64,000 nt of DNA from Antedon mediterranea (taxonomy: Eukaryota > Animalia > Echinodermata): NCBI RefSeq assembly GCF_964355755.1, contig NC_092674.1, positions 12,524,001 through 12,588,000 on the forward strand. Reading direction: 5' to 3'. Positions within the stretch are counted from its first letter, which is position 1. Every line of letters begins with the position of its first letter. Positions 7,904-63,369 of the stretch are shown here, one piece after another. The notes below the pieces were generated by a model. That model did not search any database, was not told where the DNA came from, and saw only the letters and a list, made by a program, of their open reading frames with translations. Position numbers and translations under genes: made by a program.

Positions 7904-8002
7904 TTTGGTCTGAAGATCCAATTGAGCACCTTCCTTGAGCAAAATGGAGCAAACATCTGTGTGGCCGTTTTTTGCAGCCACATATAAAGGTGACGCTCCA
8001 AT
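7904..8002 (-). CDS. Ankyrin-repeat exon (most 3' in window), IGASPLYVAAKNGHTDVCSILLKEGAQLDLQTK
   Basis: 99 bp; donor ACTTAC on + strand at 7898-7903, acceptor CT at 8003-8004; identical to the 24.5 and 35.5 kb exons. Confidence 0.9.
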
Positions 8003-9150
8003 CTGAAATATTACAAACATTATGTTATAGTATTTTCTCTCTCTAAACTAAGTATTATAATATTGTCCTGGAATCAATACGATGTGATCATTTAAAAATG
8101 ACGTTATAGATTTAAATTATGCTACATAGTTAAATTAAATAAAGAGTATTAACCCTTTTCTTTAAGATAATGTATTGTATACATATACATTTTTTGTCTT
8201 TCTTGTAGGCCTATAACATTTTTTTTACATTTTTTTATAAATTTATAAAACAAATAAGTGTTTTTTTCTTTTTTTGGCCTGAAAAGTAAACACTTCATCC
8301 GATAGTGCTAACTAGTCTGAATGTAAACTGGCAGTTACAGCTAAAAATATATCTAGGCTCCAAATTCTGTTCAGGTAACACACTTTTACTGCAAAATTCT
8401 TACAATGATTACGGAATCTATTACGAGAGGTGATGGAATTTTTCTTTGAACGTCAAAATAGAGCATTGGATAGGTTGGGTCTTGCAAAATTTAATGTGTT
8501 TCCTCAATAAAGTCTCTTATAAAAGTGAATCAAATTGAGATTTACTTAATTATAACTACTGTAAGTGAAGCATAACTAAAAATACGTTCCAGCTAATTCT
8601 TACATAGTGAATAATGATAATATTTTTAATGACAGATTTATAAAAAAAATAATTAGGCCTATGGGAGGTTTAACTACAAAAGATTTAAGTCTACGCAAAA
8701 GTAAAGTCTATTTGATACTCTCATTAATGAGGTCGTGCCATTTAGGATCACTACGGTAGTGATTTATTTGCAATCTCAACTTCAGATTGGGTACCGTACC
8801 GTATTTCATGATTTAGGTGATTTTCCTATTTTTGTTTGTTACTTTGGGTGGAATATACTGTATGGTACTGCAAATAAGTCAATCTATAATAATAACCCAC
8901 TACTCTAATATTAACCCATGGGGGTTACTCTTCAAGTCACAAAAACTTATGATACAGCTGTATTTTGAAAATAAGGAGATAATGCAGGTTGATCTTGGGA
9001 GTGGGGTAGGATTGAGTGTTTTTGAGTTCAAACAAATTTGTTTATTCGTACTGTTTTATTATTTTGCTATGAGTTGCGTCACTTTACTGATATTGTTTTT
9101 CTTTGTAAGATTTTCAATTCTAATATAATTAATACTGACAATTTTTTTAA

Positions 9151-10585
9151 CTAGATGGTACGCTCGCTTCGCTCGCGTACCATCTAGGTCGTGCCCACAG
9201 ATGGTTCTCGAATACATAATAATTTCAGCGTTAAAAAACTGGCGATTTCAAATGTACGTACCGCAGGACAAATACATGTCGTTTACAGGAACGAATAAAT
9301 AGACAATGTGATTTATGTACTCAACTAAAAATAGCACCCTGGGAATTACTTCCGAAAGAGAAACTTGTCACAAAATGAGACCAATTGTTTAAGTCAAATT
9401 TAAACAAACTTAATTTGTGTTTTGTATGTAACATTAGGGTTGAGGGATGGGGAAGAGGATGGGTGGAAAGAAGAACAATTTTTAAATATATTCTTTATCT
9501 ATTTAGTAAAGAAATATTAATTGTTTTCATGTTTTACAAATAATATACCACTAAACACAGAGTAAAACATTGCGATGTAATACTTTGTTGAAGCTATAAC
9601 CGTCCAAGTCGATTGAAATAGTACAGTACATGTAACGATGTAACATCACTACGACAACGTGTATATGTTTATATAATGTAAAACAATTTGTGAAAACCAC
9701 CTCTATTTGGGGCAAATCATAAATTCGATTTAATCATCAATATATATTAAATTATCTAACTCAACTTAATTAGTAGGCCTAATGGTTTTCAATTGTTTCT
9801 TAGAGCCAATTCTTACTTAAGTTGGTTCCTACCCTACCCACCAAAGTTGTTCTGCGTTTAGGGCATGTGATGCACTGTAGGCCTATCCTCTACTGGATTG
9901 ACAACGCTACTCATGCCAGTGAGGGAAGGGTGATGATGTGGGTGGTTTAACTGCAATAATAAATATTTGTACATAAATATACGGCGACTGAAAACGCTAG
10001 CTCATTATCTGTTTAAAAAAAATGTATATCCAACCTCTGCAGCACAGATTGAAATAAAAATGGATCGAATTTCTGTTATGAGTATACAGTACTTGCCTTT
10101 ACGACGCCTGAAGGAATAGACGCTTGTGGAACAGAGATTGGAATGTTCCATTCATCGCAAATCAATACATTGGTAAAAACGTATATTAAATCTATCAAAA
10201 TAGCATTTTTAAATCGGCCTGTCTTCAACATTATGATGCTGTACTCGAACTGTTCAACCGGTTTTCAGCTATTAAAAACAATTATCGTAGGAGGTGATAG
10301 GAAAATGCGAAGTGTCCTCGTATTATTGTGTGCGGGTATTTTTCAAATTGGACATCCATTAGACAGTGTATACCACGATCGGAAAACACCCCTATTTGGG
10401 GCAAATCGTTGAACCTAAATTCGTCAATAACTAATTATCGAATTCAATTTAATTAGTAAACAGGGTTATATCAGGTGGTTAAAATCAGTACCGAAAGTAC
10501 GAACCAACTTTACATACCATCGAGTAAACATTCTAGAAATAACGCGCGATTTACCGAATTTTGCCCTTACGTAAATTTATATAGA
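9151..10585 (-). mobile_element. Non-autonomous Helitron
   Basis: Minus strand reads A|TCTATATAAA...CCATCTAG|T; terminal hairpin CTAGATGGTACGC...GCGTACCATCTAG (9151-9187); no TSD; empty site TTAA|TATTCG at 25861 and 36837. Confidence 0.88.
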
Positions 10586-12069
10586 TATTCGTAATCCAAA
10601 ACGTATTACTCGTAGCTCTTCTTCTGTTGGTACTCTTTTTGATATTCGTCGCTGCAGAACTGAATCTTTTTTTCAATCATATATCCCACGTGTTACCAGA
10701 ATTTGGAATAACTTACCCAGTGAAATCCGCAACTTAAATATTTCTGTTAGTTATTTTAATAAGCCAAATTACTTAATTATCTCAATATTTATTCTTTAAA
10801 AAATGTTGATATTGAAAAAGTGTGTAGTTGGTCGCTTTCTTGTAGATGCTTTAATTGTAGAACGTAAATTACTTATTTTTCTTATATGTTTCTGTTCTGG
10901 TTTGACCAACTAGCATAGGTGTTTAGCACCTGTTTGGTCTTTCCGTGCCTCCTTTTATAATTGTTTTGTCTTCTTTTTTATGTATATGGCAGAAATTGAA
11001 TAAATAAATAAATAAACACGGTATGTATTCAATTATCTCAACACAAATACCAATTGAAATACAATGGTTTCTGTGATTAGTTCTTTAGTTCTTTTAAATA
11101 TGGCTACTATAATCTTTCCATCTCTTCTGAAACCTGTTTTCAATACAATCAATTGCCTGTTGTAGATACAAACAAGGAAAACGCTTATTCATCATTACTA
11201 ACAAGTAAGTTATCAATGATAGTTATTTCTTCAGGTTGATGTACTTACATTTCCATCACATAACCCTTACTTTCTATCACGTAAAGTATTAAGAGTACAC
11301 GCCTGTTCATGTGCGCCATATTATTGCTCATATATTCTTTACTAAAATAATTTTGCAAGCACGTTAATGTATTGATTCAACATTACTTTGTTTATCAATA
11401 TTGGGGTTGTATATTCATATGAAGTAATACTATTAACAAGGTCAACACTCGGGAAACCAAATTTTCTGGAAAAAAGCAATGGATTTGATACTGCATTACA
11501 TTTTTTTTCTGTTATTAACCATAATAGGAAGTAAAAATAAAATGTCAACTATTGCTATATTTGGGGTTAAAGGTCACCAAATTCATGGTTTCTCACAGTT
11601 TCCATGGTTACAAGACACTATTAACATTTACCAAACATAACATTATTAGTGGATTTATATTTAATATGTCTTCTTCCTAAACAATATTAAAAAGTTTGGA
11701 TTGCCAAATTTACCATTTTTGAACTTTTGGCACACTTTGAATTGATTCTGTCCCACTTTGTCATGGGCCAAGAGCTATTCCTTTATTATTCTTTTTTTTT
11801 TTTTTAAAATCGGTAATCGTGACCCTTTATAACTTGTTGCATATGATGTGCCAGTGTGCTACGTTCTAGACATTGGAATAGTAAACAACTAATATTAAAA
11901 AGAACTTGAAACGAATTGTAAACGTCGGTCCAGCATTAGATATAATCTTAAAATTCTCTTCTGGAAAGAGGTAATAGATGTATGGAGTAATTTTATTTCT
12001 ATTCATTATCCAAAGTATGTTGACGAGCTATTACGAATGCAAGTTTGGAATAATGAAGTAATAAGAATA

Positions 12070-18235: not shown

Positions 18236-20009
18236 TTTCATTAATTTTCTTATTTTTTGTTATACACTTGACAGGATCATCATTATCATCTATCCCGTTT
18301 TAAAATAGTTCACACATTTTCATTTGTTTGTTTTCATTTTACAACCCGGATTATACAATATATTTATATACATGATAAAAAAACAATAATAGCTCAGTAC
18401 CACCAGTAACCCGTATCACTGTAATTCTTTTTCGGTTAATCGTATCAAATTAGAAATTATATTATCATAATCTTATTTCTTAAAGCTACCCATTTTTCTA
18501 TACTTGTTTCTTTATTGTTATATGTTTCACATTCAATGTTATATAACATATTGCTTTTAAATGAATTCCATAAAGATTTACCCACTGGCTTATTTAGTGC
18601 AGATAACATTTTTATTCTATAAATAGTAAATGCTGCAAAAGTGTAAAAATAATCTATTAGCTTATCTCTCGTTCCTAGTATTAATTGTTTAAATGATATA
18701 TTATTTTGATTTAAACTTACAAAGATACTAAGCATTTTCCCAGTGAAATCCGCAACTTAAATATTTCTGTTAGTTCTTTTAATAAGCCAAATTACTTAAT
18801 TATCTCAATATTTATTCTTTAAATAATGTTGATATTGAAAAAGTGTCTAGTTGGTCGCTTTCTTGTAGATGCTTTAATTGTAGAACGTAAATTATTAATT
18901 TTTCTTATATGTTTCTGTTCTGGTTTGACAAACTAGCAAAGGTGTTTAGCACCTGTTTGGTCTTTCCGTGCCTCCTTTTATAATTGTTTTGTCTTCTTTT
19001 TTATGTATATGGCAGAAATTGAATAAATAAATAAATAAACACGGTATGTATTCAATTATCTCAACACAAATACCAATTTAAATGCAATGGTTTCTGTGAT
19101 TAGTTCTTTAGTTCTTTTAAATATGTCTACTATAATCTTTCCATCTCTTCTGAAAACTGTTTTCAATACAATCAATTGCCTGTTGTAGATACAAACAAGG
19201 AAAACGCTTATTCATCATTACTAACAAGTAAGTTATCAATGCTAGTTATTTCTTCAGGTTGATGTACTTACATTTCCATCACATAACCCTTACTTTCTAT
19301 CACGTAAAGTATTAAGAGTACACGCCGGTTCATGTGCGCCATATTATTGCTCATATAATCTTTACTAAAATAATTTTGCAAGCACGTTAATGTATTGATT
19401 CAACATTACTTTGTTTATCAATATTAGGGTTGTATATTCATATGAAGTAATAATATTAACAAGGTCAACACTCGGGAAACCACATTTTCTGGAAAAAATC
19501 AATGGATTTGATACTGCATGACATTTTTTTTCTGTTATTAACCATAATAGGAAGTAAAAATAAAATGTCAACTATTGCTATATGTTGGGGTTAAAGGTCA
19601 CCAAATACAGGTCAAAAATACAAAAAAAATCATATTTTTAAAATAAAACCATTATAATAGTTTAGATTCACGGTGATTCTAGAAACAGCAGCGAATTTAT
19701 CAAAACTGTTGTTTTTGCTCTTTTAAATTGAAATTGCATGGTTTCTCCCAGTTTCCATTGTTAACAAGACACTATTAAAATTTACCAAACATAACATTAT
19801 TAGTGGATTTATATTTAATATGTCTTCTTCCTAAACAATATTAAAAATTTTGGATTGCCAAATTTACCATTTTTGAACTTTTGGCACACTTTGAATTGAT
19901 TCTGTCCCACTGTGCCATGGGCCAGGAGCTATTCCTTTATTATTCTATTTTTTTTTAAATCGGTAATCGTGATCCTTTATAACTTGTTGCATATAATGTG
20001 CCAGCGTGC

Positions 20010-24200: not shown

Positions 24201-24462
24201 AAACCTTGGTTAATCTGACTTTCCAATGTCAAGATTAACCATGACGAGGCAGTGGTGTTCCGAACCATGTGAGGGATACAACCGTGCAGTTCTCGACAAT
24301 TTAGTCATCCTCGCCACAAAAATGGTCTGTAATATGACCCACGATGTGCTTGCTTCATTTAGGTATGTTATTATTGGCACGCCCTTTATATTGTAAAATT
24401 AAACACTTTTTTAAATCACATTGAATTATATAGCACATATTATTTATGTGTGTAACACTTAC

Positions 24463-24561
24463 TTTGGTCTGAAGATCCAATTGAGCACCTTCCTTGAGCA
24501 AAATGGAGCAAACATCTGTGTGGCCGTTTTTTGCAGCCACATATAAAGGTGACGCTCCAAT
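24463..24561 (-). CDS. Ankyrin-repeat exon, IGASPLYVAAKNGHTDVCSILLKEGAQLDLQTK
   Basis: Inside ORF 24355..24579; 99 bp, canonical splice sites. Confidence 0.9.
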
Positions 24562-26288: not shown

Positions 26289-26910
26289 ACACGGTATGTA
26301 TTCAATTATCTCAACACAAATACCAATTGAAATGCAATGGTTTCTGTGATTAGTTCTTTAGTTCTTTTAAATATGTCTACTATAATCTTTCCATCTCTTC
26401 TGAAACCTGTTTTCAATACAATCAATTGCCTGTTGTAGATATGTAACATGGTGGGACCAAACCCTATTAGTCACACAGGCTATTCACCCCTTACTCTCCC
26501 CGATGCCTACTTAACTTGGAACACTACATTCCTGAGGTGGGTCTTCCAAGGAAAGTCAATCAGGATGTGGTACCATTTAATTAGTCATCCTTCCTGTCCC
26601 CTTAATATAAATATATGTTTTGTAGTTAAGTTAGTTAGTTCGGGTATTGATTCTTGAGACTATAACATCAGTCAGAATCACTACGTTTCACATTGTTTTA
26701 TAATATTACTTTTTGATTGAATAAATATTATATTTTGTACATTGAATAATTGTGTGCCATCGTTATTGTCTTGGCCCTCGACACGACTACCGTTACATGG
26801 TGGCAGTGGTTTTTACGAACTCACAAAGAAAAAGTAAATTTATACAGTCGACCAAAAGCTGTAGAATTTGAAAAGAAGCTGATTTTTATTTCCGAAACGG
26901 ATTTTGTTTT

Positions 26911-27114
26911 CAACACAAGTATAGAGTGAGTAGTAACCAATCTACACTCTTGGACACAACAACAAGTAACACAAAGGAACACAGAGAGCAACACAAGTAA
27001 AGAGTGAGTAGTAACCATTCTACACTCTTGGAAACAACAAACACAAGAAACACAAAGGAACAGAGACGTACAAAGAGCAACACAAGTAAAGGATGAGTAA
27101 CCAATCTACACTCT
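26911..27114 (+). repeat. About 2.5 copies of a 78-89 bp tandem repeat in the LTR element leader
   Basis: CAACACAAGTA...AGTAACCA(A/T)TCTACACTCT starting at 26911, 26989 and 27078. Confidence 0.85.
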
Positions 27115-27275
27115 AATTAGCATATACTTTCATACTGACAGTGGCATTTATTTTATACTTTAATAATTCTGGTTGATAATTGTATTATAATTCTCAATAT
27201 TACTTATATTGTAGTTAAGGTACATTCTGTTATTAGCCTAATTGATTCCAAACTTATCGTACATTCTCACTTAAA

Positions 27276-29066
27276 ATGGCAACTCCGCGACTTACTCGGT
27301 CCCAAACCCGTACAACCCTTATTAGTACCCCTGGGTTGGCTCCTAACTTTGAGAGTCCACCTAGCCCTCCCCCACCATCTCAATCCGAAACAGCTCTGCA
27401 AATGCGCATGCTTGAGTTAGAACTTGAACTCCAACGTCTTCGAATGCGTCAACAACCGCCCCAGGATACTCATAGCCCCATTAATAAGATCCCTAAAATC
27501 ACAGATAAGGATGACATTGACATCTACTTGTCATGCTTTGAGCGTATTGCAGCACAGTGCCAAATTCCCCCTGAAAATTGGACCCTACACCTTCTCCCAA
27601 AATTAACTGGTAAAGCCAGGGAGGCCTACAACGATATGCCTTTACAGAATTTCGTATATAACGACCTTAAAGATGCTATCCTCTTGAAGTACCACCTCAC
27701 AGCCGAAACATATCGGAAACAATTTAGACAAACCCCCAAACCCCTTTCAATGTCCACTAGAGAGTGGGTTGGAAAACTTGATCGAGACATGACGAGGTGG
27801 CTCCGAAGTGCAAAAGTTAACCTACAAGACCCCAAAGAAATTCTTGACTTTTTTGTTTTAGATCAGGCAATCCAAAAACTCCCCTTCCCACTTGCTTCCC
27901 TAATCAAAGAAAGAGAGCCCAAAACGTCCAATGAATTTTCTCGAATTGCCGATACCTTGATTGAAATTAAAGGTAAACCCTGGATGGAATCTATCTCTAA
28001 GCCCAACACCAGACCTTCCACGAGAATATCCGCCCCTCCATCAATAGCCCCGCCGTCTCCTAGTTACAGTCCCGCATCCCAAGGCCCTCCCCAACCTACA
28101 TCGAGTTATTCCCCAAAACCCTTGCTCTCGATCCCTTTTGATAATTATTCAGCCCCTGCCAGTACCTACACAAATCGTCAATACACCACACAAAACATTA
28201 CATGCTACAAATGTAATAAACCAGGCCACATTAGTCGACAATGTCCCCTTAACAACAACCCTGCAAAAGATCAATTACTAGGCCTGTATGTTAAACGCAA
28301 TTATGGGACAAACCCATGGTTACTGTCTGGTACAATTAACAACAGACATGCCGAAATACTTAGAGACACTGGGTGCTCCCAAAGCATTGTAAAAAGTACT
28401 TTTGTTAAACCCAAGGATTATACCAGTGAAACTGTTACCATACAAGGCTTTACTGGTCAATACGTAACCCTCCCAGTTGTACACGTACATATTGATTGTA
28501 AGGCTTATAAAGGAAAATTAAAGGCAGCCGTGAGTAATGACACTCCTAAAGACTTATTACTTGGCAACGAAGTTATGACCGGTAACCCCAACGACGTCAC
28601 TTGGCCCCCTTCTATATTAGCTATTACCAGAAAAGAAGCCCATAACCAAGAAAGACAAGAGGCTATTAATTTAGCTGCTGCTCTTAATGTTAAAACGTCC
28701 CCAATCACTGATTGTCCCCCAAGATTGTACCACATTGTCAAGAAAAATGACATTGCTAGGACCAGCGTTAAACAAGCCCAAGCGAAACAGAAACATTATT
28801 ATGATAAGAAAACATTGCCTCGAAAATTTAAGGTTGGTCAGAAAGTATTAATTCTCCTCCCAGATGACACATCGAAAGTTAAATCTAAATGGCAAGGTCC
28901 CTATCCTATCTCTAAAGTTTTCAGTGATGTTAATTATGAAATACTAGTTGGTAACAAACACAAAACATACCACATTAATTTACTACGGTTATATAATGAA
29001 CGTCCACAGAAACAAAACAATGATTATATGTACAGTACAGTAGTTAAGAGTGCCTTTTTTCAGTAA
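27276..29066 (+). CDS. 596-aa Gag (SCAN-like capsid, CCHC knuckle) plus aspartic protease plus integrase C-terminal GPY/F region; no RT, RNase H or integrase core
   Basis: Motifs DDIDIYLSCFER...LTGKAREAY, CYKCNKPGHISRQC, LRDTGCSQS, DLLLGNE, KQKHYYDK, KWQGPYPI, YHINLLR. Confidence 0.9.
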   Translation: MATPRLTRSQTRTTLISTPGLAPNFESPPSPPPPSQSETALQMRMLELELELQRLRMRQQPPQDTHSPINKIPKITDKDDIDIYLSCFERIAAQCQIPPENWTLHLLPKLTGKAREAYNDMPLQNFVYNDLKDAILLKYHLTAETYRKQFRQTPKPLSMSTREWVGKLDRDMTRWLRSAKVNLQDPKEILDFFVLDQAIQKLPFPLASLIKEREPKTSNEFSRIADTLIEIKGKPWMESISKPNTRPSTRISAPPSIAPPSPSYSPASQGPPQPTSSYSPKPLLSIPFDNYSAPASTYTNRQYTTQNITCYKCNKPGHISRQCPLNNNPAKDQLLGLYVKRNYGTNPWLLSGTINNRHAEILRDTGCSQSIVKSTFVKPKDYTSETVTIQGFTGQYVTLPVVHVHIDCKAYKGKLKAAVSNDTPKDLLLGNEVMTGNPNDVTWPPSILAITRKEAHNQERQEAINLAAALNVKTSPITDCPPRLYHIVKKNDIARTSVKQAQAKQKHYYDKKTLPRKFKVGQKVLILLPDDTSKVKSKWQGPYPISKVFSDVNYEILVGNKHKTYHINLLRLYNERPQKQNNDYMYSTVVKSAFFQ

Positions 29067-32000
29067 TTTTGTAAAATCAATTTCATCTTGTATGTATAAT
29101 CTTAAATATAATACGCTTATTTACTTATCAGATTGGATTTAGTTAAATGTAGTATTAAGTTTACTGCCACTGTCATGATGATGTGTATGTTGAATTGTGT
29201 TTTATTGGTTCTCCCCTCCTGCCCACTGGGTACAAGAAGCTTTTCACAACTATGTTCTCTGAATGAAGTTAATTATAATGGATCACAAGAAACTTTTAAC
29301 ACTTACATGAGAATTACTTATTGATAAACTATTTCACTTTATTTGACTCGGATTGATGAGAAACTTGAATCCAGAAATGTACATTTTTTGAAGATTTTCT
29401 TCAAGATATAGTGGACAGTCAACTGCAGTTATGTCGTTCTCAGATTTTTTTGTTATGAACTGAATTTTGGGAAGCAGGTCAACTTGTTTCTAGGCAACAG
29501 CTGATTGATGGATCTATCAGGAGTAAATACAGGAGTTCCTACATTTATGTCCCGCTGACTTTCATTTTCAACTGAACATGTTTGCTGAGCTATATATTAT
29601 TATGAACGCTTTATATTGTTATTATGACTTTTAATTTGAGAACTTTTACCAATTTTACTTTTACTTTTGTATGTTTTGCCACGTTTGCCGATTTATTGAT
29701 TTGTGACGATTTGCGTTACTTTTTCTTTTGTTTAGATTTAAGATGTTCGTAGTTAAGTTTGTTTCTCAATACATTTTTGGCTCAGTGACTCGTTGGTTTC
29801 GAAGACACGGCTTCGAATTGACGAGCGGGGGAATGTAACATGGTGGGACCAAACCCTATTAGTCACACAGGCTATTCACCCCTTACTCTCCCCGATGCCT
29901 ACTTAACTTGGAACACTACATTCCTGAGGTGGGTCTTCCAAGGAAAGTCAATCAGGATGTGGTACCATTTAATTAGTCATCCTTCCTGTCCCCTTAATAT
30001 AAATATATGTTTTGTAGTTAAGTTAGTTAGTTCGGGTATTGATTCTTGAGACTATAACATCAGTCAGAATCACTACGTTTCACATTGTTTTATAATATTA
30101 CTTTTTGATTGAATAAATATTATATTTTGTACATTGAATAATTGTGTGCCATCGTTATTGTCTTGGCCCTCGACACGACTACCGTTACAAGATACAAACA
30201 AGGAAAACGCTTATTCATCATTACTAACAAGTAAGTTATCAATGATAGTTATTTCTTCAGGTTGGTGTACTTACATTTCCATCACATAACCCTTACATTC
30301 TATCACGTAAAGTATTAAGAGTACACGCCTGTTCATGTGCGCCATATTATTGCTCATATATTCTTTACTAAAATAATTTTGCAAGCACGTTAATGTATTG
30401 ATTCAACATTACTTTGTTTATCAATATTGGGGTTGTATATTCATATGAAGTAATAATATTAACAAGGTCATCACTCGGGAAACCAAATTTTTGGGAAAAA
30501 AGCAATGGATTTGATACTGCATGACATTTTTTTTCTGTTATTAACCATAATAGAAAGTAAAAATAAAATGTCAACTATTGCTATATTTTGGGGTTAAAGG
30601 TCACCAAATACAGGTCAAAATACCAAAAATTATATTTTTAAAATAAAACCATTATAATGGTTTAGATTCACGGTGATTCTAGAAACAGCAGCGAATTTAT
30701 CAAAACTGTTGTTTTTGCTCTTTTAAATTGAAATTTCATGGTTTCTCCCAGTTTCCATGGTTACAAGACACTATTACAATTTACCAAACATACCATTATT
30801 AGTGGATTTATATTTAAGATGTCTTCTTCCTAAACAATATTAAAAAGTTTGGCACACTTTGAATTGATTTTGTCCCACTGTGCCATGGGCCAAGAGCTAT
30901 TCCTTTATTATTCTATTTTTTTTAATCGGTAATCGTGACCCTTTATAAGTTGTTGTATATGATGTGCCAGCGTGCTACGTTCTAGACATTGGAATAGTAA
31001 ACAACTTAACTAATAGTAAAAAGAACTTGAAACGAATTTTAAACGTCTGTCCAGCATTAGAGATAATCTTAAAAAATTCTCTTCTGGAAAGAGGTAATAG
31101 ATGCATGGAGTAATTTTATTTCTATTCATTATCCAAAGTCTGTTGACGAGCTATTAAGAATGCAAATTTGGAATAATGAAGTAATAAGAATAGGCAACGA
31201 ATGTATAAGATATGGAAATTGGGAAAAAGCAGGTATTCTGTTTGTTAATGATTTGTTTAACAGCAATGGGCAATTTATGAACAAAAAAGAAGTCGAAGAT
31301 ACCTATGGAATTAAGATAAATTATATAAAATTAATAGGATTAAGAAGGCTTCTTATGGAAAAATTTAACAATTTAATGATATGGGAAATTAAAAAAAAAA
31401 CTGTTTTGCCAGATATTCCATTTCATATAAAAAGTACTCTTTCAACAAAGAAAGGGATGTCGTATTTTGTATGATGTTTTAAATAACTCAATGTTTAAAT
31501 CATGGAAAGCACAAAAGAAATGGGCAGAGAATAAATTTGTATTCAATAACGAACAATTGAAAACAATCTACCTAGATCCACATACGTGTATAATGCATAT
31601 TGTTTTAATATATTTTCAATATAAAATTGTAAACAGAATAATTGCAACAAATGAACAATTATTTAAAATTAATATAAAAGAAACTTCAATGTGCTCATTT
31701 AGAGATGGTAAAATTGAAACCATTTTGCATTTGTTCTGTAATTGTCGAATAGTAAAAAGGATATGGAACCTCCTCCAGGAAAAAAATATCAGAAAAAACT
31801 TGAGCGCATTTATTTTTAGTAAAGAGAGCTTTATTTTCGGATACCAAGATGCGCATCAGTTTTATAATTTAAAAGTCATTAATGCAATTATTCTAATTGT
31901 AAAATCATTTATTTATAGTTAAATGTAAGCCAACTATCAAAATGGTTATGAACGAGTTAAAAAGGTTTTATGAAACGGAAAAATGTATTTATCATCAGAA

Positions 32001-35000
32001 TTTCCAGGACAGTATTTTAAATAGAAAATGGATAAAATTAGAAGCAGTTATAAATCAAATATGAAATTGTTAGAGATTAGAATAATTTTTATGAACCTTT
32101 ATTTAATTTGTGAGATGGATATCTTTGTTGTTTTTTGTTTAATTTTTATTTTTTATTTGATTATGTTTTTCCTTTGTAATGTATTATAAGATGGAAAAAA
32201 AAAAGTAAACAACCAAATAAAAGTGAAATTGGGTAGACTTGTAAATGGTAGTTGCGAATTAATTGCCATTTCTTACAAAGGGAGCATACCGCCTCTCGAA
32301 ACTACGTATTTTGGTACCTGGATGTGTATAGCATGGCCTCCGGATGTCTACGCATGAGCTGGACCAACTTCTAAATATATTTACTCTATAAATATTTCTT
32401 ACAGAGGGACACCGCCAGATTAAGTGCGTCCTATCACTAGTAAGTAACTTGATTCTGATTTCTAACTACAGGACAGATATTGACGCGTAAACCACAAAGA
32501 AAATGAGTTTGTGAATTAGTAGACGTTTTACTGTAATATTAAATATATTTGTTACTAAAAATTAGTTTGATAAAATATATTCTACAAAATTAGTAGGCCT
32601 AATCGTTTTCCCCTAATAAATTAAGGGGATGGGGGGTGGGGGCACGTGTTTGTTTATGAGTGAGAATCAATAAGGCATTTAGTTAAAATGCAGACCGTCT
32701 TAAATTACTGGACATGTTCCGATAAATATATTCTCATCATCAGAATTGTAATCAAAGCCTAGAATACTTGTATACGTACAAAGTTGCGTTTAAATGAGTC
32801 AATCATTAGCATGAGAATAGATTTATCGAAACATGTCACGTAATTTTAAGATGGTCCACATTTTCATTAAATGCCTTATGATATTATTGATTATCAATCG
32901 TAATTTGGTGGTATTATACATGATGTGCCTGTTTATATACAGTGAAAGAGCTTATTTTAGTATCCTATAGTAATATAGTTTCTATATAAGAGAATATGTT
33001 ATTTCAAATCAGGTACAAAAGCCGACGATCCAAGCGAATTACATGTTTAAAAAAAATCGGAAAACACTCATTTGTTATTTTCAAAACACATTGAAAATCG
33101 GCGCGGTCCGATGGCATTCGTGACTGGCGGAAAAACGCAACAAAAATGAAAAACGAAAATGGCATGTTGTGTTTTCTGTAGGCCTATACAGTAATTAGTT
33201 TCTCAGATACCACCGTTTACAGTAGTATAATTGGGTGTTTATTTCAAGCTCATATCAACGGGCAAAGAAATCCTCGTTATTAAAAAAAACATATTTAAAC
33301 TTATTCACTATAGTATATTTAAATTATCTACTTATTACTTTATTTATATATTGTTTTCTCTTTTTACTTGGTTAGATAAAACAAACGGAAAACATTCTAG
33401 TTGAAATTGTTTATGTTAATTATATCCACAGATTGCACTATTTTCTTTATACTTAATTAGGTAATCTTTTCGTACTGTTGGGAATTGATAAATATTTCAG
33501 TTCAATTATTTTCCAAAATAGTGGTACACAACAATGAAAGAAAACAACATTTTTGTTACGTTCTTGTCATTAGAAATATTCTTGCGACTGAGGTGAACTT
33601 CGAAAATGCCGGTCAGATATAAAAAAAAACAGTTACAAGGAATAAATTAGCAATTGTCACTGCATACTCATCCATCAAACTAGCCTACATCGAGAAAATA
33701 TTTAATTCTATGAATCTTATGATGGTTAGTTTTATAGGAACAATAGTACTATTTTTATTTGTTTTGGCAATTAATGCAATTAAAGCGTAATTAATTCGTC
33801 ATATTCCATTTGGAATACTACGTCCTGTAAAATGACTATAGAATGTTCTGATTTGTTAATTTTTAAATTATATTATAATATACAGAATTATATATTATTT
33901 AAAATGTTCGGGTAGCTTCCATGCATGCGGCTTTTGGCCTTAATGGAAGTCCTTTTGTATATTTTTTCTTTTTTTACAGTATAATTTAATTTTGTTTAAA
34001 CTACAGGCGTGGCCCGTGAAAAAAAAAATCAAAGTATATGTATCGCCGTCAACGGCAAATATTGGAGCAGATCAAAAACTACATCAACCGGGAAATCACG
34101 AAATCAATTTTATACCGCGGACGATTGAAAATCTGCCGATGAAATCAGAAAGGTTGTTTTAACACCTTTTATAATATCTGCCTAAGAGAGAAATATTATT
34201 AAATCTACGTTTCGCGTATCTGAGATAGATAATGTAGGTATGCAAGGCGGAAATCTTTTTCCATTGTGCTCAAAAGTAACCATAATTTAAGTATAGATAC
34301 ACTAACATCGTGGAGCACATTTAGCTCGTAGTATCAGGTACGTGCACATAACATCGCATTGGTAAGTCACAAACATATTAGTAAAATGCACAACACTGCA
34401 GTAATAGTTATTAAAACATAAAGGTTATGAAATAATCAAATTAAACAAATGTCTATCCTTACACGTACGAAAAAAACACCAACAGTTATCTAACAACACG
34501 AATTCCTTACCTTCGCGCAAACACTGAAAGAACGAATGATTATTTATTATGCTTAATTCTGGAATAGGTATGCACAATGTAAAACGCATAGCACCAACTC
34601 CTTGTCGGTTCTTACCCCAGCTGTTCCATTCATCTAATATCTTAGAAAAGATAGTATTAGTGTTTTTAATGTCTTATGTCATCGGTAGACTTTTAACAGT
34701 CATCGGTAAAGTTACTTCCGAGTTCGTCATCACTTTACGATTTCCAACTTCGCTGTATAGTCCCAATAAAACCTCTGTACAAAACGCTTGCAGCTGTCCC
34801 ACATATGAACGTGGCATGTACATTTGATATACATTTGAGTCCAGATAGTTCATGTTTCTCTCTTTAAACGTCAAAATGTACTAATTTGTATTAATTATAT
34901 TGTAGAATACTATGGTTTGGCTATTTAATATTATTGTAACTCAGACTGTTTAAAACTTAATGAAGAAATAGCTCATAATGTGTAATATGTTATAAATTCT

Positions 35001-35438
35001 GTATACACTACGATAGGACGTGACGTTATTATTATATTACAGTTGTAGACTATGTATAAATTTTATAATGTACCGCGATGGTAAGATTCGCATAGAAATT
35101 AATAATATTACAAGTAATAAATATTAATTTATAAAGATTAAACAAGTTATTACAAAGTTTGACATCAATTGTGACAAAACCTTGGTTAATCTGACTTTCC
35201 AATGTCAAGATTAACCATGACGAGGCAGTGGTGTTCCGAACCATGTGAGGGATACAACCGTGCAGTTCTCGACAATTTAGTCATCCTCGCCACAAAAATG
35301 GTCTGTAATATGACCCACGATGTGCTTGCTTCATTTAGGTATGTTATTATTGGCACGCCCTTTATATTGTAAAATTAAACACTTTTTTAAATCACATTGA
35401 ATTATATAGCACATATTATTTATGTGTGTAACACTTAC

Positions 35439-35537
35439 TTTGGTCTGAAGATCCAATTGAGCACCTTCCTTGAGCAAAATGGAGCAAACATCTGTGTGGC
35501 CGTTTTTTGCAGCCACATATAAAGGTGACGCTCCAAT
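35439..35537 (-). CDS. Ankyrin-repeat exon, IGASPLYVAAKNGHTDVCSILLKEGAQLDLQTK
   Basis: Inside ORF 35331..35555; 99 bp, canonical splice sites; identical to exons at 24463 and 7904. Confidence 0.9.
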
Positions 35538-38500
35538 CTGAAATATTACAAACATTATGTTATAGTATTTTCTCTCTCTAAACTAAGTATTATAATATTG
35601 TCCTGGAATCAATACGATGTGATCATTTAAAAATGACGTTATAGATTTAAATTATGCTACATAGTTAAATTAAATAAAGAGTATTAACCCTTTTCTTTAA
35701 GATAATGTATGTATACATATACATTTTTTGTCTTTCTTGTAGGCCTATAACATTTTTTTTACATTTTTTTATAAATTTATAAAACAAGTAAGTGTTTTTT
35801 TCTTTTTTAGCCTGAAAAGTAAACAGTTCATCCGATCCGATAGTGCTAACTAGTCTGAATGTAAACTGGCAGTTACAGCTAAAAATATATCTAGGCTCCA
35901 AATTCTGTTCAGGTAACACACTTTGACTGCAAAATTCTTACAATGATTACGGAATCTATTACGAGAGGTGATGGACTTTTTCTTTGAACGTCAAAATAGA
36001 GCATTGGATAGGTTGGGTCTTGCAAAATTTAATGTGTTTCCTCAATAAAGTCTCTTATAAAAGTGAATCAAATTGAGATTTACTTAATTATAACTACGCT
36101 TCACTTAGTAGTAGTAACTACTACTAAGTGAAGCATAACTAAAAATACGTTCCAGCTAATTCTTACATAGCGAGTAATGATAATATTTTTAATGATAGAT
36201 TTATAAAAAATTACTTAGGCCTATGGGAGGTTTAACTACAAAAGATTTAAGTCTACGCAAAAGTAAAGTCTATTTGATACTCTCATTAATGAGGTCGTGC
36301 CATTTAGGATCACTACGGTAGTGATTTATTTGCAGTCTCAACTTCAGATTGGGTACCGTACCGTATTTCATGATTTAGGTGATTTTCCTATTTTTGTTTG
36401 TTACTTTAGGTGGAATATACTGTATGGTACTGCAAATAAGTCAATATATAATAATAACCCACTACTCTAATATTAACCCATGGGGGTTACTCTTAAAGTG
36501 ACAAAAACTTATGATACAGCTGTATTTTGAAAATAAGTAGATAATGCAGGTTGATCTTGGGAGTAGGGGAGGATTGAGTGTTTTTGAGTTCAAACAAATT
36601 TGTTTATTCGTACTGTTTTATTATTTTGCTATAAGTTGCTGACCAAAAAAGTTGGGGTGGGTTACTATTTTCAGGTGCTTAATTTAAGATTAGTAATAGT
36701 AACCCATTACTCTAATTGTAACCCCCCTTCCAATATATATAATCTATATAATCATTATTGTATTGGCGTCACTTTACTGATCTCGTTTTTCTTTGTAAGA
36801 TTTTCAATTCTAATATAATTAATACTGACAATTTATTTAATATTCGTAATCCAAAACGAGTTACTCGTAGCTCATCTTCTGTTGGTACTCTTTTTGATAT
36901 TCGTCGCTGCAGAACTGAATCTTCTTTTCAATCATATCCCACGTGTTACCAGAATTTGGAATAACTTACCCAGTGAAATCCGCAACTTAAATATTTCTGT
37001 TAGTTCTTTTAAAGCCAAATTACTTAATTATCTCAATATTTATTCTTTAAATAATTTTGATATTGAAAAAGTGTGTAGTTGGTCGCTTTCTTGTAGATGC
37101 TTTAATTGTAGAACGTAATTTATTTATTTTTCTTATATGTTTCTTCTGGTTTGACAAACTAGCATAGGTGTTTAACACCTGTTTGGTCTTTCCGTGCCTC
37201 CTTTTATAATTATTTTGTCTTCTTTTTCATGTATATGGCAGAAATTGAATACATAAATAAATAAACACGGTATGTATTCAATTATCTCAACACAAATACC
37301 AATTGAAATGCAATGGTTTCTGTGATTAGTTCTTTAGTTCTTTTAAATATGTCTACTATAATCTTTCCATCTCTTCTGAAACCTGTTTTCAATACAATCA
37401 ATTGCCTGTTGTAGATACAAACAAGGAAAACGCTTATTCATCATTACTAACAAGTAAGTTATCAATGATAGTTATTTCTTCAGGTTGGTGTACTTACATT
37501 TCCATCACATAACCCTTACATTCTATCACGTAAAGTATTAAGAGTACACGCCTGTTCATGTGCGCCATATTATTGCTCATATATTCTTTACTAAAATAAT
37601 TTTGCAAGCACGTTAATGTATTGATTCAACATTACTTTGTTTATCAATATTGGGGTTGTATATTCATATGAAGTAATAATATTAACAAGGTCATCACTCG
37701 GGAAACCAAATTTTTGGGAAAAAAGCAATGGATTTGATACTGCATGACATTTTTTTTCTGTTATTAACCATAATAGAAAGTAAAAATAAAATGTCAACTA
37801 TTGCTATATTTTGGGGTTAAAGGTCACCAAATACAGGTCAAAATACCAAAAATTATATTTTTTAAATAAAACCATTATAATGGTTTAGATTCACGGTGAT
37901 TCTAGAAACAGCAGCGAATTTATCAAAACTGTTGTTTTTGCTCTTTTAAATTGAAATTTCATGGTTTCTCCCAGTTTCCATGGTTACAAGACACTATTAC
38001 AATTTACCAAACATACCATTATTAGTGGATTTATATTTAAGATGTCTTCTTCCTAAACAATATTAAAAAGTTTGGCACACTTTGAATTGATTTTGTCCCA
38101 CTGTGCCATGGGCCAAGAGCTATTCCTTTATTATTCTATTTTTTTTAATCGGTAATCGTGACCCTTTATAAGTTGTTGTATATGATGTGCCAGCGTGCTA
38201 CGTTCTAGACATTGGAATAGTAAACAACTTAACTAATAGTAAAAAGAACTTGAAACGAATTTTAAACGTCTGTCCAGCATTAGAGATAATCTTAAAAAAT
38301 TCTCTTCTGGAAAGAGGTAATAGATGCATGGAGTAATTTTATTTCTATTCATTATCCAAAGTCTGTTGACGAGCTATTAAGAATGCAAATTTGGAATAAT
38401 GAAGTAATAAGAATAGGCAACGAATGTATAAGATATGGAAATTGGGAAAAAGCAGGTATTCTGTTTGTTAATGATTTGTTTAACAGCAATGGGCAATTTA

Positions 38501-41500
38501 TGAACAAAAAAGAAGTCGAAGATACCTATGGAATTAAGATAAATTATATAAAATTAATAGGATTAAGAAGGCTTCTTATGGAAAAATTTAACAATTTAAT
38601 GATATGGGAAATTAAAAAAAAAACTGTTTTGCCAGATATTCCATTTCATATAAAAAGTACTCTTTCAACAAAGAAAGGGATGTCGTATTTTGTATGATGT
38701 TTTAAATAACTCAATGTTTAAATCATGGAAAGCACAAAAGAAATGGGCAGAGAATAAATTTGTATTCAATAACGAACAATTGAAAACAATCTAGCTCCAC
38801 ATACCTGTACAATGAATATTGTTTTAATATATTTTCAATATAAAATTGTAAACAGAATAATTGCAACAAATGAACAATTATTTAAAATGAATATAAAATA
38901 AACTTCAATGTGCTCATTTAGAGATGGTAAAATCGAAACCATTTAGCATTTGTTCTGTAATTGTCCAATAGTAAAAAGGATATGGAACCAGCTCCTCCAG
39001 GTAAAAATTTAGAAAAAACTTGAGTGCAATTTATTTTTAGTAAAGAGAGCATTATTTTCGGATACCAAGATGCGCATCAGTTTTTTAATTTAAAAGCCAT
39101 TAATGCAATTATTCTAATTGTAAAATCATTTATTTATAAATGTAAACTAGTTAAATGTAAGCCAACTATCAAAATGGTTATGAACTAGTTAAAAAGGCTT
39201 TATGAAACAGTATTTTAAATAGAAAATGGATAAAATTAGAAGCAGTTATGAATCAAATATGAAATTGTTAGAGATTAGAATAATTTTTATGAACCTTTAT
39301 TTAATTTGTGAGATGGATATCTTTGTTGTTTTTTGTTTAATATTTATTTTTTATTTGATTATGTTTTTCCTTTGTAATGTATTATATGATGAAAACAAAA
39401 AATAGTAAACAACCAAATAAAAGTGACATTGGGTAGACTTGTAAATGGTAGTTGCGAATGAATTGCCATTTCTTACAAAGGGAGCATACCGCTTCTCGAA
39501 ACTACGTATTTTGGTACCTGGATGTGTATAGCATGGCCTCCGGATGTCTACGCGTGAATGGGCCAACTTCTAAATATATTTACTCTATAAATATTTCTTA
39601 CAGAGGGACACCGCCAGATTAAGTGCGTCCTATCACTAGTAAGTAACTTGATTCAGATTTCTAACTACAGGATAGATATTTGTTAATTTCAAAACATATT
39701 GCAAATCGACGCGGACCGATGGCATTCGTGACTGGCGGAACAACGCAACAAAAATGAAAAACGAAAATGGCATGTTGTGTTTTCTGTAGGCCTATACAGT
39801 AATTAGTTTCTCAGATACCACCGTTTACAGTAGTAGAATTGGGTGTTTATTTCAAGCTCACATAAACGGGCAAAGAAATCCTGGTTATTAAAACAAAACA
39901 TATTTAAACTTATTCACTATAGTATATTTAAATTATCTACTTATTAATTTATTTATATAATGTTTTCTCTTTTTACTTGGTTAGATAAAACAAACGGAAA
40001 ACATTCTAGTTGTTTATGTTAATTATACCCACAGATTGCACTATTTTCTTTATACTTAATTAGGTAATCTTTTTGTACTGTTGTGAATTGATAAATATTT
40101 CAGTTCAATTATTTCCCAAAATAGTGGTACACAACAATGAAAGAAAATGTGAAAACGACATTTTTGTTACGATCTTGTCATTAGAAATATTCTTGCGACT
40201 GAGGTGAATTTCGAAAATGCGGGTCAGATAAAAAAAAAACAGTTACAAGCAATAAATTAGCAATTGTCACTGCATACTTATCCATCAAACTAGCCTCCAT
40301 CAAGAAAATATTCAATTCCATGAATCTTATGAGGGTTAGTTTTATAGGAACAATAGTACTATTTTTATTTGTTTTGGCAATTAATGCAATTAAAGCGTAA
40401 TTAATTCGTCATATTCCATTTGGAATACTACGTCCTGTAAAATGACTAGAATGTTCTGATTTGTTAATTTTTAAATTATATTAGGCCTATATACAGAATT
40501 ATATATTATTTAAAATGTTCGGGTAGCTTCCATGCATGCGGCTTTTGGCCTTAATGGAAGTCCTTTTGTATATTTTTTCTTTTTTTACAGTATAATTTAA
40601 TTTTGTTTAAACTACAGGCGTGGCCCGTGAAAAAAAAAATCAAAGTATATGTGTCACCATCAACGGCAAATATTGGAGCAGAGCAAAAACTATATCAACC
40701 GGGAAATCACGAAATCAATTTTATACCGTGGACGATTGAAAATCTGCCGATGAAATCAGAAAGGTTGTTTTAACACCTTTTATAATATCTGCCTAAGAGA
40801 GAAATATTATTAAATCTACGTTTCGCGTATCTGAGATAGATAATGTAGGTATGCAAGGTGGAAATCTTTTTCCATTGTACTAAAAATTAACCATACATAT
40901 TATTTTGTTTTATTTATTGTAATGCGCCGTGTTCTTTATATCTTTGATTGTATATTGTTTTTCAATAATAATAAGGTAATTTCTCTTAGTATTAAAGCGT
41001 AACACCGCGGCTTTAAAATGTATATTGCTTATTATAAAATATAAACCTTTTAATCAACATTGGTAATAACCGTGCCTAATTTTAGACAGCACTCAGGAAA
41101 AGTAAAGTAGCTTCTTTAAAAAAAGTTGTTCTATAAGACAATACTACAGTCTGTACGCGTGTGAAGTGGAACTAATTCGCCTTAAAATACTAGTTTTAAA
41201 ATATCATAGTTAATTAACCTTTTAAATAGCTGATAATCAAAGATGTGCGCGCGTGCAAATTAACAATAGAAATTAATATTTATTTACAGAAGCTAACATT
41301 ATGTTTTCTATTCGAAAAACGTTCTTGTTATGGAACACAGTAAGTGATTGGTGTAACTTCACACTAACGATATATTGAAACATTATATTAATTAGTCTCC
41401 TTTACATAGACCTTGGTCATATGCGATTATTTGAAATTCAGATAAGTTTAGTATTGATATTATGTTACTGAGGTGTAGTAGTCTGCTACATGCAATGTGG

Positions 41501-44830: not shown

Positions 44831-46334
44831 CTCCGTTTATCCAGTAGGATTCACTCAGCTGTGTTGGCATGATACTTCTATCACTGTGACCATACTTGAA
44901 ATGAGTATCTTGAATAACGAAATCAGCAACAGTTGGTCCCATAGAAATGAAAATTGGTTGCTTTTTAGTCGGCTGGAATTATATTGCTTTTACGGCCACA
45001 AAAAGTGTCAGTACTCTGGTTTTCAGTGTGAACCACAAAAACATCTACCCTTGCGCGTGTACTTTTCGCGGAAAAATATTTGGACGTTTAGCTCAGCACA
45101 TAAATTCCTGATTAAAAGTATAAATTCGCGTTACAGTGTGCTACATCGACGGTCGAAAATAACCGTTGAACAAAAAGTCATGTAGCTAGATCATTACGTA
45201 ATCTTCAACACGCCAGTTAATTCATAGAAAGTTAGCTAACTTATTTCTCCATGATAGAACAAAAGAGTCTAACACAATTATCGGGTCCTGATGAGTTGTA
45301 GGTCTAACTTGTAAAAGAAATATAAAGTTGGTTGAGTATGTTTCAATGTTTCGGAAGCTTTACTGTACTTGTTTATCTTTAAACTGCATCATCATTTTTT
45401 TTTTCAGATTGAACTTAACTGATTTTAAATCAATTGGAGCTCATCAGTTATATACATTATAATGATTTCAGATTTGACAAAATAATTAAAACTGATTACA
45501 TTAAATGTTTTAATATTTACATAAACAATGGTACGAAGACGTAAACTTATTGTGAACTTCTGCATTTAAATTATATTATTAAGAGGTTAATTAGGCCTAT
45601 TTCAAATAACAGTTCCGAATAATTGGATGTGTTGCTTATTCTCGAAATTGTCTTTTATTTCAAACTCACATAAACGGGCACTGAAATCTCCGTTATTAAA
45701 CACATTATTTTAAGCTTATTCAGTATTATTTAATAGTATTATTCAATTATTTATATATATATATGTTGTTCCTTTTTCTTCTTCTTCTTCTTTTTACTTG
45801 ATTAGATAAAACATGTTAGTGAGAAAATGCCCATATTTTAGTTAACATTTATCATCTAATGATATTATTTTAAGTATACCCACAAATTGCACTTTTTATG
45901 TATACTTAAATAGGTTGTTATTTTCGCATATTTGTTGCTGTTAAAATAATAAATATTTCACTTAAAAAAACTTTCCAAAAACAGTGGTACACAACAACGA
46001 CGACAACAAAGATGTGAAAACAAACTCTATTTTACGTTCTTGTCACTATAAATATTTTGAACGATTGAGTTGGAAGAAAAGGTGCGTTATGTGCAAAGGT
46101 AAAATAAAAAAAAAGATATTTCAAAACCAGTGTTACACTGTAAAAATGATTTCGGAAAAGACACAAATAAAGCATTATTAATCAGCAATTAGCACTGTCT
46201 ACTCATCAACCAAACTACTGCACCAAACGCGCCGCAAAGCAAATATTCAATTCACAGTCATTCATTTTTTATTTTTTTTTAAATAATGTATGTACTATGA
46301 AAACATTTCTTCTGGTTTCGATTCGTATAATGAT

Positions 46335-49413: not shown

Positions 49414-49512
49414 ATTGTTTGGAAGATCCACTTTAGCACCTGCCTTGAGCAAAATAGTGCAAACGTCTGTGTGGCCCTCTTGTGCAGCTCCATTTAAAGG
49501 TGACCATCCATC
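49414..49512 (-). CDS. Ankyrin-repeat exon, DGWSPLNGAAQEGHTDVCTILLKAGAKVDLPNN
   Basis: Inside ORF 49303..49527; 99 bp between TTTCAG and GTAAGT, phase 0/0. Confidence 0.9.
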
Positions 49513-54184: not shown

Positions 54185-54283
54185 ATTCGTCTGAAGATCC
54201 AAATTAGCACCTGCCTTGAGCAAAATAGTGCAAACATCCGTTTGGCCCTTTAGTGCAGCCACATATAAAGGTGACGCTCCATT
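54185..54283 (-). CDS. Ankyrin-repeat exon, NGASPLYVAALKGQTDVCTILLKAGANLDLQTN
   Basis: 99 bp, TTTCAG/GTAAGT boundaries, phase 0/0; hand-translated; flanking introns homologous to the other five exons. Confidence 0.9.
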
Positions 54284-58487: not shown

Positions 58488-59427
58488 TGTAAAAACAAGT
58501 AAAACAGAATAAATTAGCAATTGTCACTGCATACTCATCCTTCAAACTAGCCGCCATCAAGCAAACACTCAATTCACACTCATTCAGATAAACAAAAAAA
58601 TGCACTTATTTTCGGATTATTTTTTTCTTACTTAATTTGTGTATTATTTTATATTAATGTACATCGTTTTTATTTAATATTATGACTCCAATTATATATT
58701 GGAAATAAGGATTTGATCGAGTCGACTTTAGATTTGCAAGTAACAGAGAAGCATTTCTCTTGTCCGTTGTCAGAAGGTTATTGAATCTTTGTTGATGATT
58801 TCTCTAATACCTATATGTAATTAACCGCTTTACGTCAATCTGTGTAGTAGGTACTAACAATAATATGTATTAGAACTCTAGTAACTGTCCTTTTCTGATA
58901 TCTATCTTCGACTCAATGTATTTCATTTCTTTCATGAATATGAACAGTTTATCTTAAATGAAAGTTGAATTGAATTTGAATTGCTTGTTTATTGTATTAA
59001 CCATTTTCTGTAATTTTAGTATTAATTTCTTTAAAATGAATCTTATGAGCGTTAGTTTTACAGCAACAATAGTACTTTATTTAACATTTTATAATAAAAA
59101 TAAATTACCTTGGATATGAATAAGTACAACACCGTGTTTGATATTATCAAGAAGTGATAACAGTAAACAATTGTATGAATATGCTTGATAAATAAATAGA
59201 CATAGCAGTCAATGAATTATTCAACAATTAGTATAATTGTGTTTGTTTTAGAATACAATATTGTGTGTATAAATGTACGTGGCGGAGCGTTTATTAGAGG
59301 GTGGAGGTTGGATATTCCAAAGATGTTTTATTGGCGAGGGGCGTTTATTCAAATATTTGCGGTAGGCCTAATTGGTATAATCAATATATTATTTAGTTTA
59401 AATCAAACACCAAGTAATGACAATCAT

Positions 59428-62380: not shown

Positions 62381-62949
62381 TCTATATATAAATTATGGTT
62401 AATTCTGACAAAGGCGAGCACAATGCAAACACTTCGGTACAAATCTCCGCCTTGGATACCTACCTTATCTCTCCCAGATGTACCGCGAAACGTAGATTTG
62501 ATAACATTAGTTTTCACATCGACGCTATTGTTCCATATTTCAATCTTAGGAAGATATTATAAAGGGTTTTATAAGAAATTTTCTGATTTCAATCAGTAAA
62601 TTTTAACTCTACGCGCGGTAGAAGTAATTTCCGGGTTCACGGTAAGGTGTTGGTTTCAACCAGGGAGTTGTAAAACAACTACCTGTTTCAAGTGCTTGGT
62701 GGCGATAGCCATTTTGTGTTTTTGTTTATTTTCGGACCGCGCGTGTGAAGGTATATAATATAATCATCTAATACACTTAGGTTAGTGAGTACGTTTAGTT
62801 TTACGAATATCAAAAGCATAGTAACCGACCGAAATTGTCCAGGCCAGAATGTCCTTCTAAAACTGTTTACGACAAGAGTCATTATTATTCCGAGAACCAT
62901 CGTCTACACTTCCTAGAGGGGGAGCGAGAGAAGCGAGCTCACCCTCTAG
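62381..62949 (+). mobile_element. Short non-autonomous Helitron
   Basis: A|TCTATATATAAATT start; hairpin CTAGAGGG...CCCTCTAG|T end; shares CGAGAACCATC with the 18.2 kb Helitron end; absent from paralogues at ~7545 and 24105. Confidence 0.8.
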
Positions 62950-63270
62950 TAATTATTATTAATATTTATAAAGATTAAACAAGTTATTACCAAGTGTGAC
63001 ACCAGTTGTTACAAAACCTTGGTTAATCTGACTTTGCAATTTCAAGATTAACCTTGACGAGGCAGCGGTGTTCCGAACCATGTGAGGGGTACAACCGTGC
63101 AGTTCTCGACAATTTAGTTGCAACAAAAATGATCTGTAATATGACCCGCGATGTGGTTGCTTCATTTAGGTATGTTATTACTGACACGCCCTTTAAATTG
63201 TAAAATTAAACACTTTTTAAATCACACTTAATTATATAGTAATATTATTATTAATGTGTGTAACACTTAC

Positions 63271-63369
63271 TTTGGCCTGAAGATCCAATTTAGCACCTTC
63301 CTTGAGCAAAATAGTGCAAACATCTGTGTGGCCGTTTTGTGCAGCCAAATGTAAAGGTGACCATCCATC
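63271..63369 (-). CDS. Ankyrin-repeat exon (most 5' in window), one 33-aa repeat DGWSPLHLAAQNGHTDVCTILLKEGAKLDLQAK
   Basis: 99 bp, open frame; minus-strand acceptor TTTCAG and donor GTAAGT, phase 0/0; fits ankyrin consensus G-x-(T/S)PLH-x-AA-x-x-GH...LL-x-x-GA. Hand-translated; not in the ORF track. Confidence 0.92.

Follow-up and report, generated by a model that had tools for sequence, protein, structure and literature searches.

In brown algae, genes of the ROCO family encode each leucine-rich repeat (LRR) of their product in an exon of its own, and these exons are shuffled, diversified and alternatively spliced (PMC3341825; PMC11378527). For the receptors made in this way an immune role is proposed, not proven. 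Among animals, at least 17 expanded ROCO proteins with death or CARD, TPR and LRR domains are described from Trichoplax (PMC4104024), and TIR proteins of Aplysia carry ROCO domains (PMC9334734); architectures that combine ankyrin repeats with ROCO are known from Gonium and oomycetes (PMC11378527). In their sections on expanded invertebrate ROCO proteins, the accounts cited (PMC4104024, PMC11378527, PMC8195603) mention no array of shuffled single-repeat ankyrin exons in an animal ROCO. Neither did we find a description of a crinoid ankyrin-ROCO family in the open-access literature, supplements aside. Here we analyse 64,000 nucleotides of the feather star Antedon mediterranea (contig NC_092674.1, positions 12,524,001 to 12,588,000; this whole stretch is called the window), which carry six exons of one ankyrin repeat each. 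We think that this array is likely to be an ankyrin-based animal variant of the exon-shuffled brown-algal ROCO design, in which ankyrin and the animal host would be what is new.

The window is AT-rich (GC 29-38%) and without N. With exon E1 (Table 1) as query five further copies were recovered, every one on the minus strand; protein and DNA profile searches of the 64 kb gave no seventh, and the window holds no inverted copy. All six are preceded by TTTCAG and followed by GTAAGT, are open in phase 0, encode 33 amino acids and pass the Pfam Ank model (PF00023) with 31-41 bits against a cut-off of 21.1. To this extent the six one-repeat exons of 99 bp reported in a first-pass annotation are real. 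However, E4a, E4b and E4c are identical at 99 of 99 bases, hence there are only four distinct repeats; these differ from each other at 11-20 of 99 bases, and all four have intact frame and splice sites. The order in the transcript is E1, E2, E3, E4a, E4b, E4c, with introns of 8987, 4672, 13876, 10877 and 16460 bp between successive exons. Constant N-terminal, cap or Roc exons were not found in the window, which agrees with the earlier view that the gene ends and any effector domain lie outside it.

What might be the protein to which these repeats belong? Searches with a profile of the whole repeat were crowded by long repeat proteins, and no repeat was more than 21/33 identical among the best 150 of 95,743 and the best 120 of 1,793. 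On this ground STAND-ankyrin proteins of mosquito, beetle and mussel, as well as ANK2, were ruled out as close kin. Over all 271 proteins gathered before the targeted search the best repeat was 21/33 identical, which gives no sign of orthology to a conserved housekeeping ankyrin gene. Metagenome loci (80 kept of 241) are at most 70% identical, NCBIfam gave sub-threshold generic matches only, and an atlas search with one repeat returned generic ankyrin clusters only. When the profile was limited to the second half of the repeat, which is less generic, 16 matches came up among 621 candidates. The five best are 'uncharacterized' A. mediterranea models (P0276-P0280) from one chromosome-sized record of 31.9 Mb; the closest RefSeq models of this species are XP_071950137/138/139, XP_071949374, XP_071950050 and XP_071950764, all 'uncharacterized'. 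The 11 variable repeats of the five models are 24-29/33 identical to some window exon and none is fully identical, with E3 reaching 27-29/33 against repeats of P0277, P0278 and P0279. The models also share intron-derived ends with the window, and one further exon (T, see below) is common to P0278 and the window.

Three of the models (P0276, P0278, P0279) are N-terminal fragments, consisting of a constant N-terminus, one constant repeat and two variable repeats, and they end in intron read-through or an unrelated tail. The other two (P0277 and P0280) begin in intron-derived sequence and continue with three and two variable repeats, respectively, then a cap and the beginning of a P-loop GTPase; in P0280 a death domain (E=1e-10) lies between cap and GTPase. 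Among GTPase families, Pfam Roc ranks best for P0277 (E=1.8e-5) and second for P0280 (E=0.0077). In the PDB, Roc-like matches reaching back over the helix that precedes the P-loop were obtained with 4wnr for both fragments, and with 3dpu, 8r4b and 6hlu for one fragment (E 0.17-0.99); we take all four to be prokaryotic Roco structures. On the P-loop part itself, Rab and other GTPases in PDB score equal or better. The nearest atlas clusters are mostly Roc-containing (scores 0.78-0.79), which we treat as a lead only. An AlphaFold model of P0280 from a two-sequence alignment was poor (mean predicted local distance difference test score, pLDDT, 51.7) and was not used. The simplest reading is that the five models would be a split annotation of genes with cap, variable array, cap, optional death domain and Roc. 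Read together in this way, they make membership of the ROCO family probable, and the window exons are likely to belong to an ankyrin-(death)-ROCO gene. The comparison with Ectocarpus ROCO genes made in the first-pass annotation turned out to be closer than supposed: two of the five nearest proteins have a Roc-like GTPase start and one has a death domain.

The array resembles brown-algal ROCO genes, as these are described (PMC3341825, PMC11378527), in that every repeat has its own phase-0 exon, all of one length, in that repeat exons have been duplicated and lost, and probably also in diversified binding residues, alternative splicing and repeats placed before a Roc GTPase. It differs from them in that the repeats are ankyrin and not LRR, the host is an animal, a death domain may precede Roc, the introns measure 4.7-16.5 kb, the family is apparently small against 37 genes, and intact repeat exons on the non-coding strand are absent from the window (six of six lie on one strand). 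With expanded invertebrate ROCOs and AP-GTPases (PMC4104024, PMC8195603) it would share the union of repeat sensor, Roc GTPase and death-fold domain in lineage-specific combinations. DAPK1 also joins ankyrin repeats with Roc and death domains, but has a kinase and carries its death domain C-terminally, while in the feather-star models death comes before Roc. The canonical ankyrins ANK1-3 have repeats in the same register as the window exons, and exon boundaries in ANK genes fall at the same repeat position. Yet DAPK1 and ANK1-3 are conserved, with divergent repeats that stay fixed (those of ANK2 match the window exons at no more than 17/33), and a canonical ankyrin with ZU5-UPA-death was ruled out since the nearest proteins lead into a Roc-like GTPase and not into ZU5. 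As a separate observation, the mosquito, beetle and mussel proteins P0001, P0002 and P0153 belong to the STAND-type NTPases and carry 22-53 near-identical ankyrin repeats, again variable at these positions; they are parallel repeat-sensor designs.

Fourteen of the 33 positions vary among the four distinct exons, including all six that are randomised in designed ankyrin repeat proteins (DARPins; p=0.003). DARPins bind via their randomised positions on the concave face and, like the predicted product, place constant caps around near-identical 33-aa modules varying there (PMC8229355), but they are engineered binders, and binding by the feather-star array is a prediction. Over the 14 distinct repeats of the window and the five models, mean entropy is 1.55 bits at the six positions against 0.53 elsewhere (p=0.002), and positions 7, 8, 27 and 32 are also highly variable. 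Variation on the binding face, which had been proposed from the window exons, is therefore borne out. The proportion of non-synonymous sites that differ (pN) at the six positions is 0.25-0.59, against 0.04-0.19 for synonymous sites (pS). Between E1 and E4, 5 of 16 non-synonymous sites at the six positions differ, compared with 57/664 (8.6%) in the introns (p=0.009); synonymous sites differ at 1 of 23. Twelve variants are listed from sequencing runs (see below), called in the exon middle only and each scored singly against E1: residues are changed by six of six at codons 11-12 and by two of six at codons 15-22 (p=0.03). The counts are small, but diversifying selection at the binding positions seems likely.

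The first-pass annotation had placed every exon in a homologous multi-kb intron unit. This holds for the E4 copies (blocks of 2.6-7.3 kb) and partly for E1 (0.85 kb and further blocks), but for E2 and E3 homology is limited to ~0.47 kb about the exon and scattered blocks. Growth of the array by duplication of exon plus intron is supported by the near-identical tandem unit of ~7.2 kb. The units of E4a and E4b show 5 differences in 5941 bp, and 1 in the adjoining 1287 bp. Their breakpoints lie inside ~97%-alike repeats upstream of the C exons (see below), where identity shifts from 96-98% to near 100%. Such a switch is the pattern expected of unequal crossing-over between homologous units (PMC12314368 gives the general model), and we infer that the E4 tandem duplication may have arisen in this way. 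Judged by its flanks (~97%), E4c is older than the duplication of E4a and E4b, and the E1 unit, which is of the E4 type too (its flanks and those of E4 agree at ~91%), is older again. Two intron blocks without exon point to sites where exons were probably lost. In exon bases 1-8, three informative sites join E1 to E3, but at three later exon sites and at most intron sites E1 goes with E4. We take this as a sign of a short exchange inside the exon, with convergence as the alternative. Comparisons within the window thus support gain, loss and recombination of repeat exons as recent events. The step taken in the first-pass annotation from ongoing duplication to a diversified recognition protein is overstated: the newest expansion brought in three repeats that are identical and all lie near a putative alternative last exon with a stop, and so has added no diversity.

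For splicing, E1 was compared with contigs of four sequencing runs (X1, X5, X6 and X7, from organisms A and B) at an alignment of at least 80%. Contigs numbered 114, 68, 44 and 49, hence either organism has this family in multiple copies or in a highly polymorphic state. In the DNA-like runs X1, X6 and X7, the loose ends listed at exon boundaries are intron flanks, with no join among the entries. The entries listed for X5, which we guess to be RNA, include nine different in-frame ankyrin-to-ankyrin joins and one join from ankyrin to C; in one contig exon end meets exon start, the shorter side of the join being 31 letters long. For one of the X5 loose ends the median is just 8 letters; two are consensus lines from a pair of contigs. 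Eight joins have readable peptides (PNN|K, QRN|N, QNK|N, YDK|D, QEN|D, PNN|D, TTN|N, PAN|N), which we took manually from five join rows and three loose-end rows. All X5 joins cut at the predicted donor and acceptor, so the splice sites first proposed appear to be used, at the level of the family. In A. mediterranea itself, P0276 and P0278 carry the names isoform X1 and isoform X2; the first variable repeat is the same in both and the second differs, a sign of alternative exon use.

The ankyrin-to-C join also led to exons that the first-pass annotation had overlooked. A motif from this join (one X5 contig) occurs four times in the window, against 0.01 expected by chance, and each time directly after AG. 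The duplicated units hold, besides the ankyrin exons, spliceable exons with in-frame stops, C in four copies and T in two; of the 17 residues of T1, 16 match the last exon of P0278. The full order on the minus strand is E1, E2, E3, T1, C1, E4a, C2, E4b, C3, C4, E4c, T2. Both C and T look like alternative last exons within introns, and they may be noise or purposeful short forms. Exon C matched no Pfam family. In its +1 frame there is an open stretch of 39-40 codons (37285-37404 on the minus strand, and in the other copies too), with a possible donor at +106 that would make it finish in phase 0, roughly 1.8 kb upstream of E4; this frame (40 codons) gave no Pfam family and no match in the five A. 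mediterranea models.

On balance we favour, with moderate confidence, the reading that the window exons are the variable middle of a feather-star ROCO-type gene, which would encode an intracellular sensor. In the predicted product, a variable ankyrin stack sits between a constant N-terminal cap and a second constant cap, followed by a death domain, which is optional, and by a Roc GTPase. Homologous intron units would undergo unequal crossing-over, now and then with exchange within an exon, so that the number and order of repeats change, and selection would favour change at residues lining the predicted binding groove. Ligand binding might then switch the Roc GTPase, which would signal via the death domain or downstream domains, while splicing to a C or T exon would yield short ankyrin-only forms. 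A role in defence could be suggested from architecture and by analogy. We can speculate further, and more tentatively, that the exons work as a natural counterpart of a DARPin library, the cassettes being duplicated, recombined and alternatively spliced into individual-specific intracellular receptors with a death-domain/Roc switch, while splicing to a stop exon sets free ankyrin-only decoys. This would be an animal reinvention of the brown-algal design; it is possible, but we would not expect all of its parts to hold. If correct, the same design has arisen twice with different repeats, the ankyrin version independently in a deuterostome. It would also lend support to a recognition role for expanded invertebrate ROCO proteins and offer a concrete candidate for crinoid immunity, a barely studied field. 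At present the family is hidden among split 'uncharacterized' gene models.

Several observations weigh against the sensor-gene reading. In P0277 and P0280 only the start of the GTPase is visible, with Roc scores (25.4 and 16.9 bits) near or below the Pfam cut-off of 27; both models end inside the GTPase, and COR and later GTPase motifs are absent from them. The constant exons lie outside the window, therefore the link to Roc is made through the family and not in cis. The family appears small, five fragments against 37 Ectocarpus ROCOs. The identification of X5 as RNA is a guess, and X5 covers all 30 intron-rich bins, hence it also holds DNA or unspliced RNA. The joins between neighbours in the window (QAK|N, QTN|D, PNN|I, QTK|I) match none of the eight X5 joins, which are thus evidence for the family and not for the window alleles. 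The newest E4 copies are identical and interleaved with stop-containing exons. Over whole exons pN is 0.13-0.21, about equal to pS, and in the other 27 codons of E1 and E4 non-synonymous change (5/60) is not below the intron rate (p=0.59). Finally, 20 repeats of ANK2, taken as a control, show the same trend (2.64 bits at the six positions against 1.62), so positional enrichment alone is generic.

The last three of these points would also suit ordinary repeat turnover in a non-immune ankyrin-Roc gene or a decaying copy, in which unequal crossing-over adds and removes repeats, and surface residues vary for want of constraint. The newest copies have carried stop exons and transposon fragments along with them, and small counts leave such an account some room. 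Nevertheless we regard it as unlikely, because the non-synonymous change between E1 and E4 at the six positions exceeds intron divergence, all six listed variants at codons 11-12 alter the residue, and all four distinct exons have kept frame and splice sites.

Another possibility is that the locus makes only short ankyrin-only proteins, with the constant N-terminus, two to four repeats and a C or T tail but no Roc in cis, which act as decoys or inhibitors of full-length relatives. Three of the five A. mediterranea models end without Roc, one of them in the T exon found at 44908, X5 holds the ankyrin-to-C join, and the array is interrupted by all the C and T copies. But intron read-through ends, and Roc models that start in intron-derived sequence, are what one would expect of one gene split by annotation. 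Moreover, C and T tails are not ankyrin caps, C has no Pfam match, and the series of paralogous introns runs on to the start of the window. We consider this quite improbable.

Still less probable, in our opinion, is a Dscam- or VLR-like system with mutually exclusive exon choice or somatic rearrangement and one receptor per cell. It could accommodate the many different joins in a single run and the two annotated isoforms that differ in the second variable exon. However, ankyrin exons follow one another serially in the X5 joins, nine joins could come from several gene copies and two haplotypes, and inverted exon copies are lacking in the window. That the E4 triplication is an assembly artefact, with two haplotypes placed in tandem, is hardly credible. 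In its favour is the 99.9% identity of the E4a and E4b units across 5.9 kb, but they differ by an LTR (long terminal repeat) insertion with target duplication and by 5 substitutions, the flanks of E4c are ~97% alike, other individuals yield contigs with far more differences from the window, and E1-E3 would be unaffected in any case.

Table 1. Features of the window (position 1 is its first letter)
Feature	Position	Strand	Remarks
E1 ankyrin-repeat exon	63271..63369	-	99 bp, phase 0-0
E2 ankyrin-repeat exon	54185..54283	-	99 bp, phase 0
E3 ankyrin-repeat exon	49414..49512	-	99 bp, phase 0
E4a ankyrin-repeat exon	35439..35537	-	99 bp, phase 0
E4b ankyrin-repeat exon	24463..24561	-	identical to E4a
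E4c ankyrin-repeat exon	7904..8002	-	identical to E4a; flanks ~97% alike
T1 putative alternative last exon	44855..44908	-	coding part 17 codons + stop; AG acceptor upstream
T2, second T copy	6228..6284	-	also similar to P0278 tail
C1 putative alternative last exon	37343..37405	-	20 codons + stop when joined to ankyrin exon
C2 copy of putative last exon	26367..26429	-	upstream pyrimidine tract replaced by LTR end
C3 copy of putative last exon	19117..19179	-	no ankyrin exon between C3 and C4
C4 copy of putative last exon	11094..11156	-	AG acceptor precedes
Tandem-duplicated unit, ~7.2 kb (C1 + E4a + introns)	31476..38699		copy at ~20500-31475
Exon-less remnant of E1/E4-type intron unit	786..2700		82-90% alike; no exon found
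Second exon-less intron-unit remnant	~39678-40895		no exon found
LTR retrotransposon, internally deleted	26442..30189	+	inserted just upstream of C2 acceptor

The LTR retrotransposon has identical 356-bp LTRs and a 5-bp target duplication. Its open frame of 606 aa contains SCAN, zinc knuckle, protease and integrase C-terminus, and 92 of 97 residues (95%) are identical to an Antedon mediterranea protein. By all appearances the element is young, and one copy of the unit received it after the tandem duplication. A fragmented reverse-transcriptase element at 46279-47749 on the minus strand (RVT_1 at 47174-47746) is presumably Penelope-like, a label that we give by appearance. In the intron between E1 and E2 there is a frameshifted reverse transcriptase of long interspersed nuclear element (LINE) type (59421-61217, plus strand; RVT_1 at 60172-60537). 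LINE 3' fragments with zf-RVT lie at 20055-20946, 31073-31922 and 38296-38697 on the plus strand and were copied along with the duplicated units. Small inverted or nested repeats, with tandem pairs of 37 bp and 68 bp, are found at 15696-17078 and 10133-10583, and also at 52152-52616; all three resemble a miniature inverted-repeat element.

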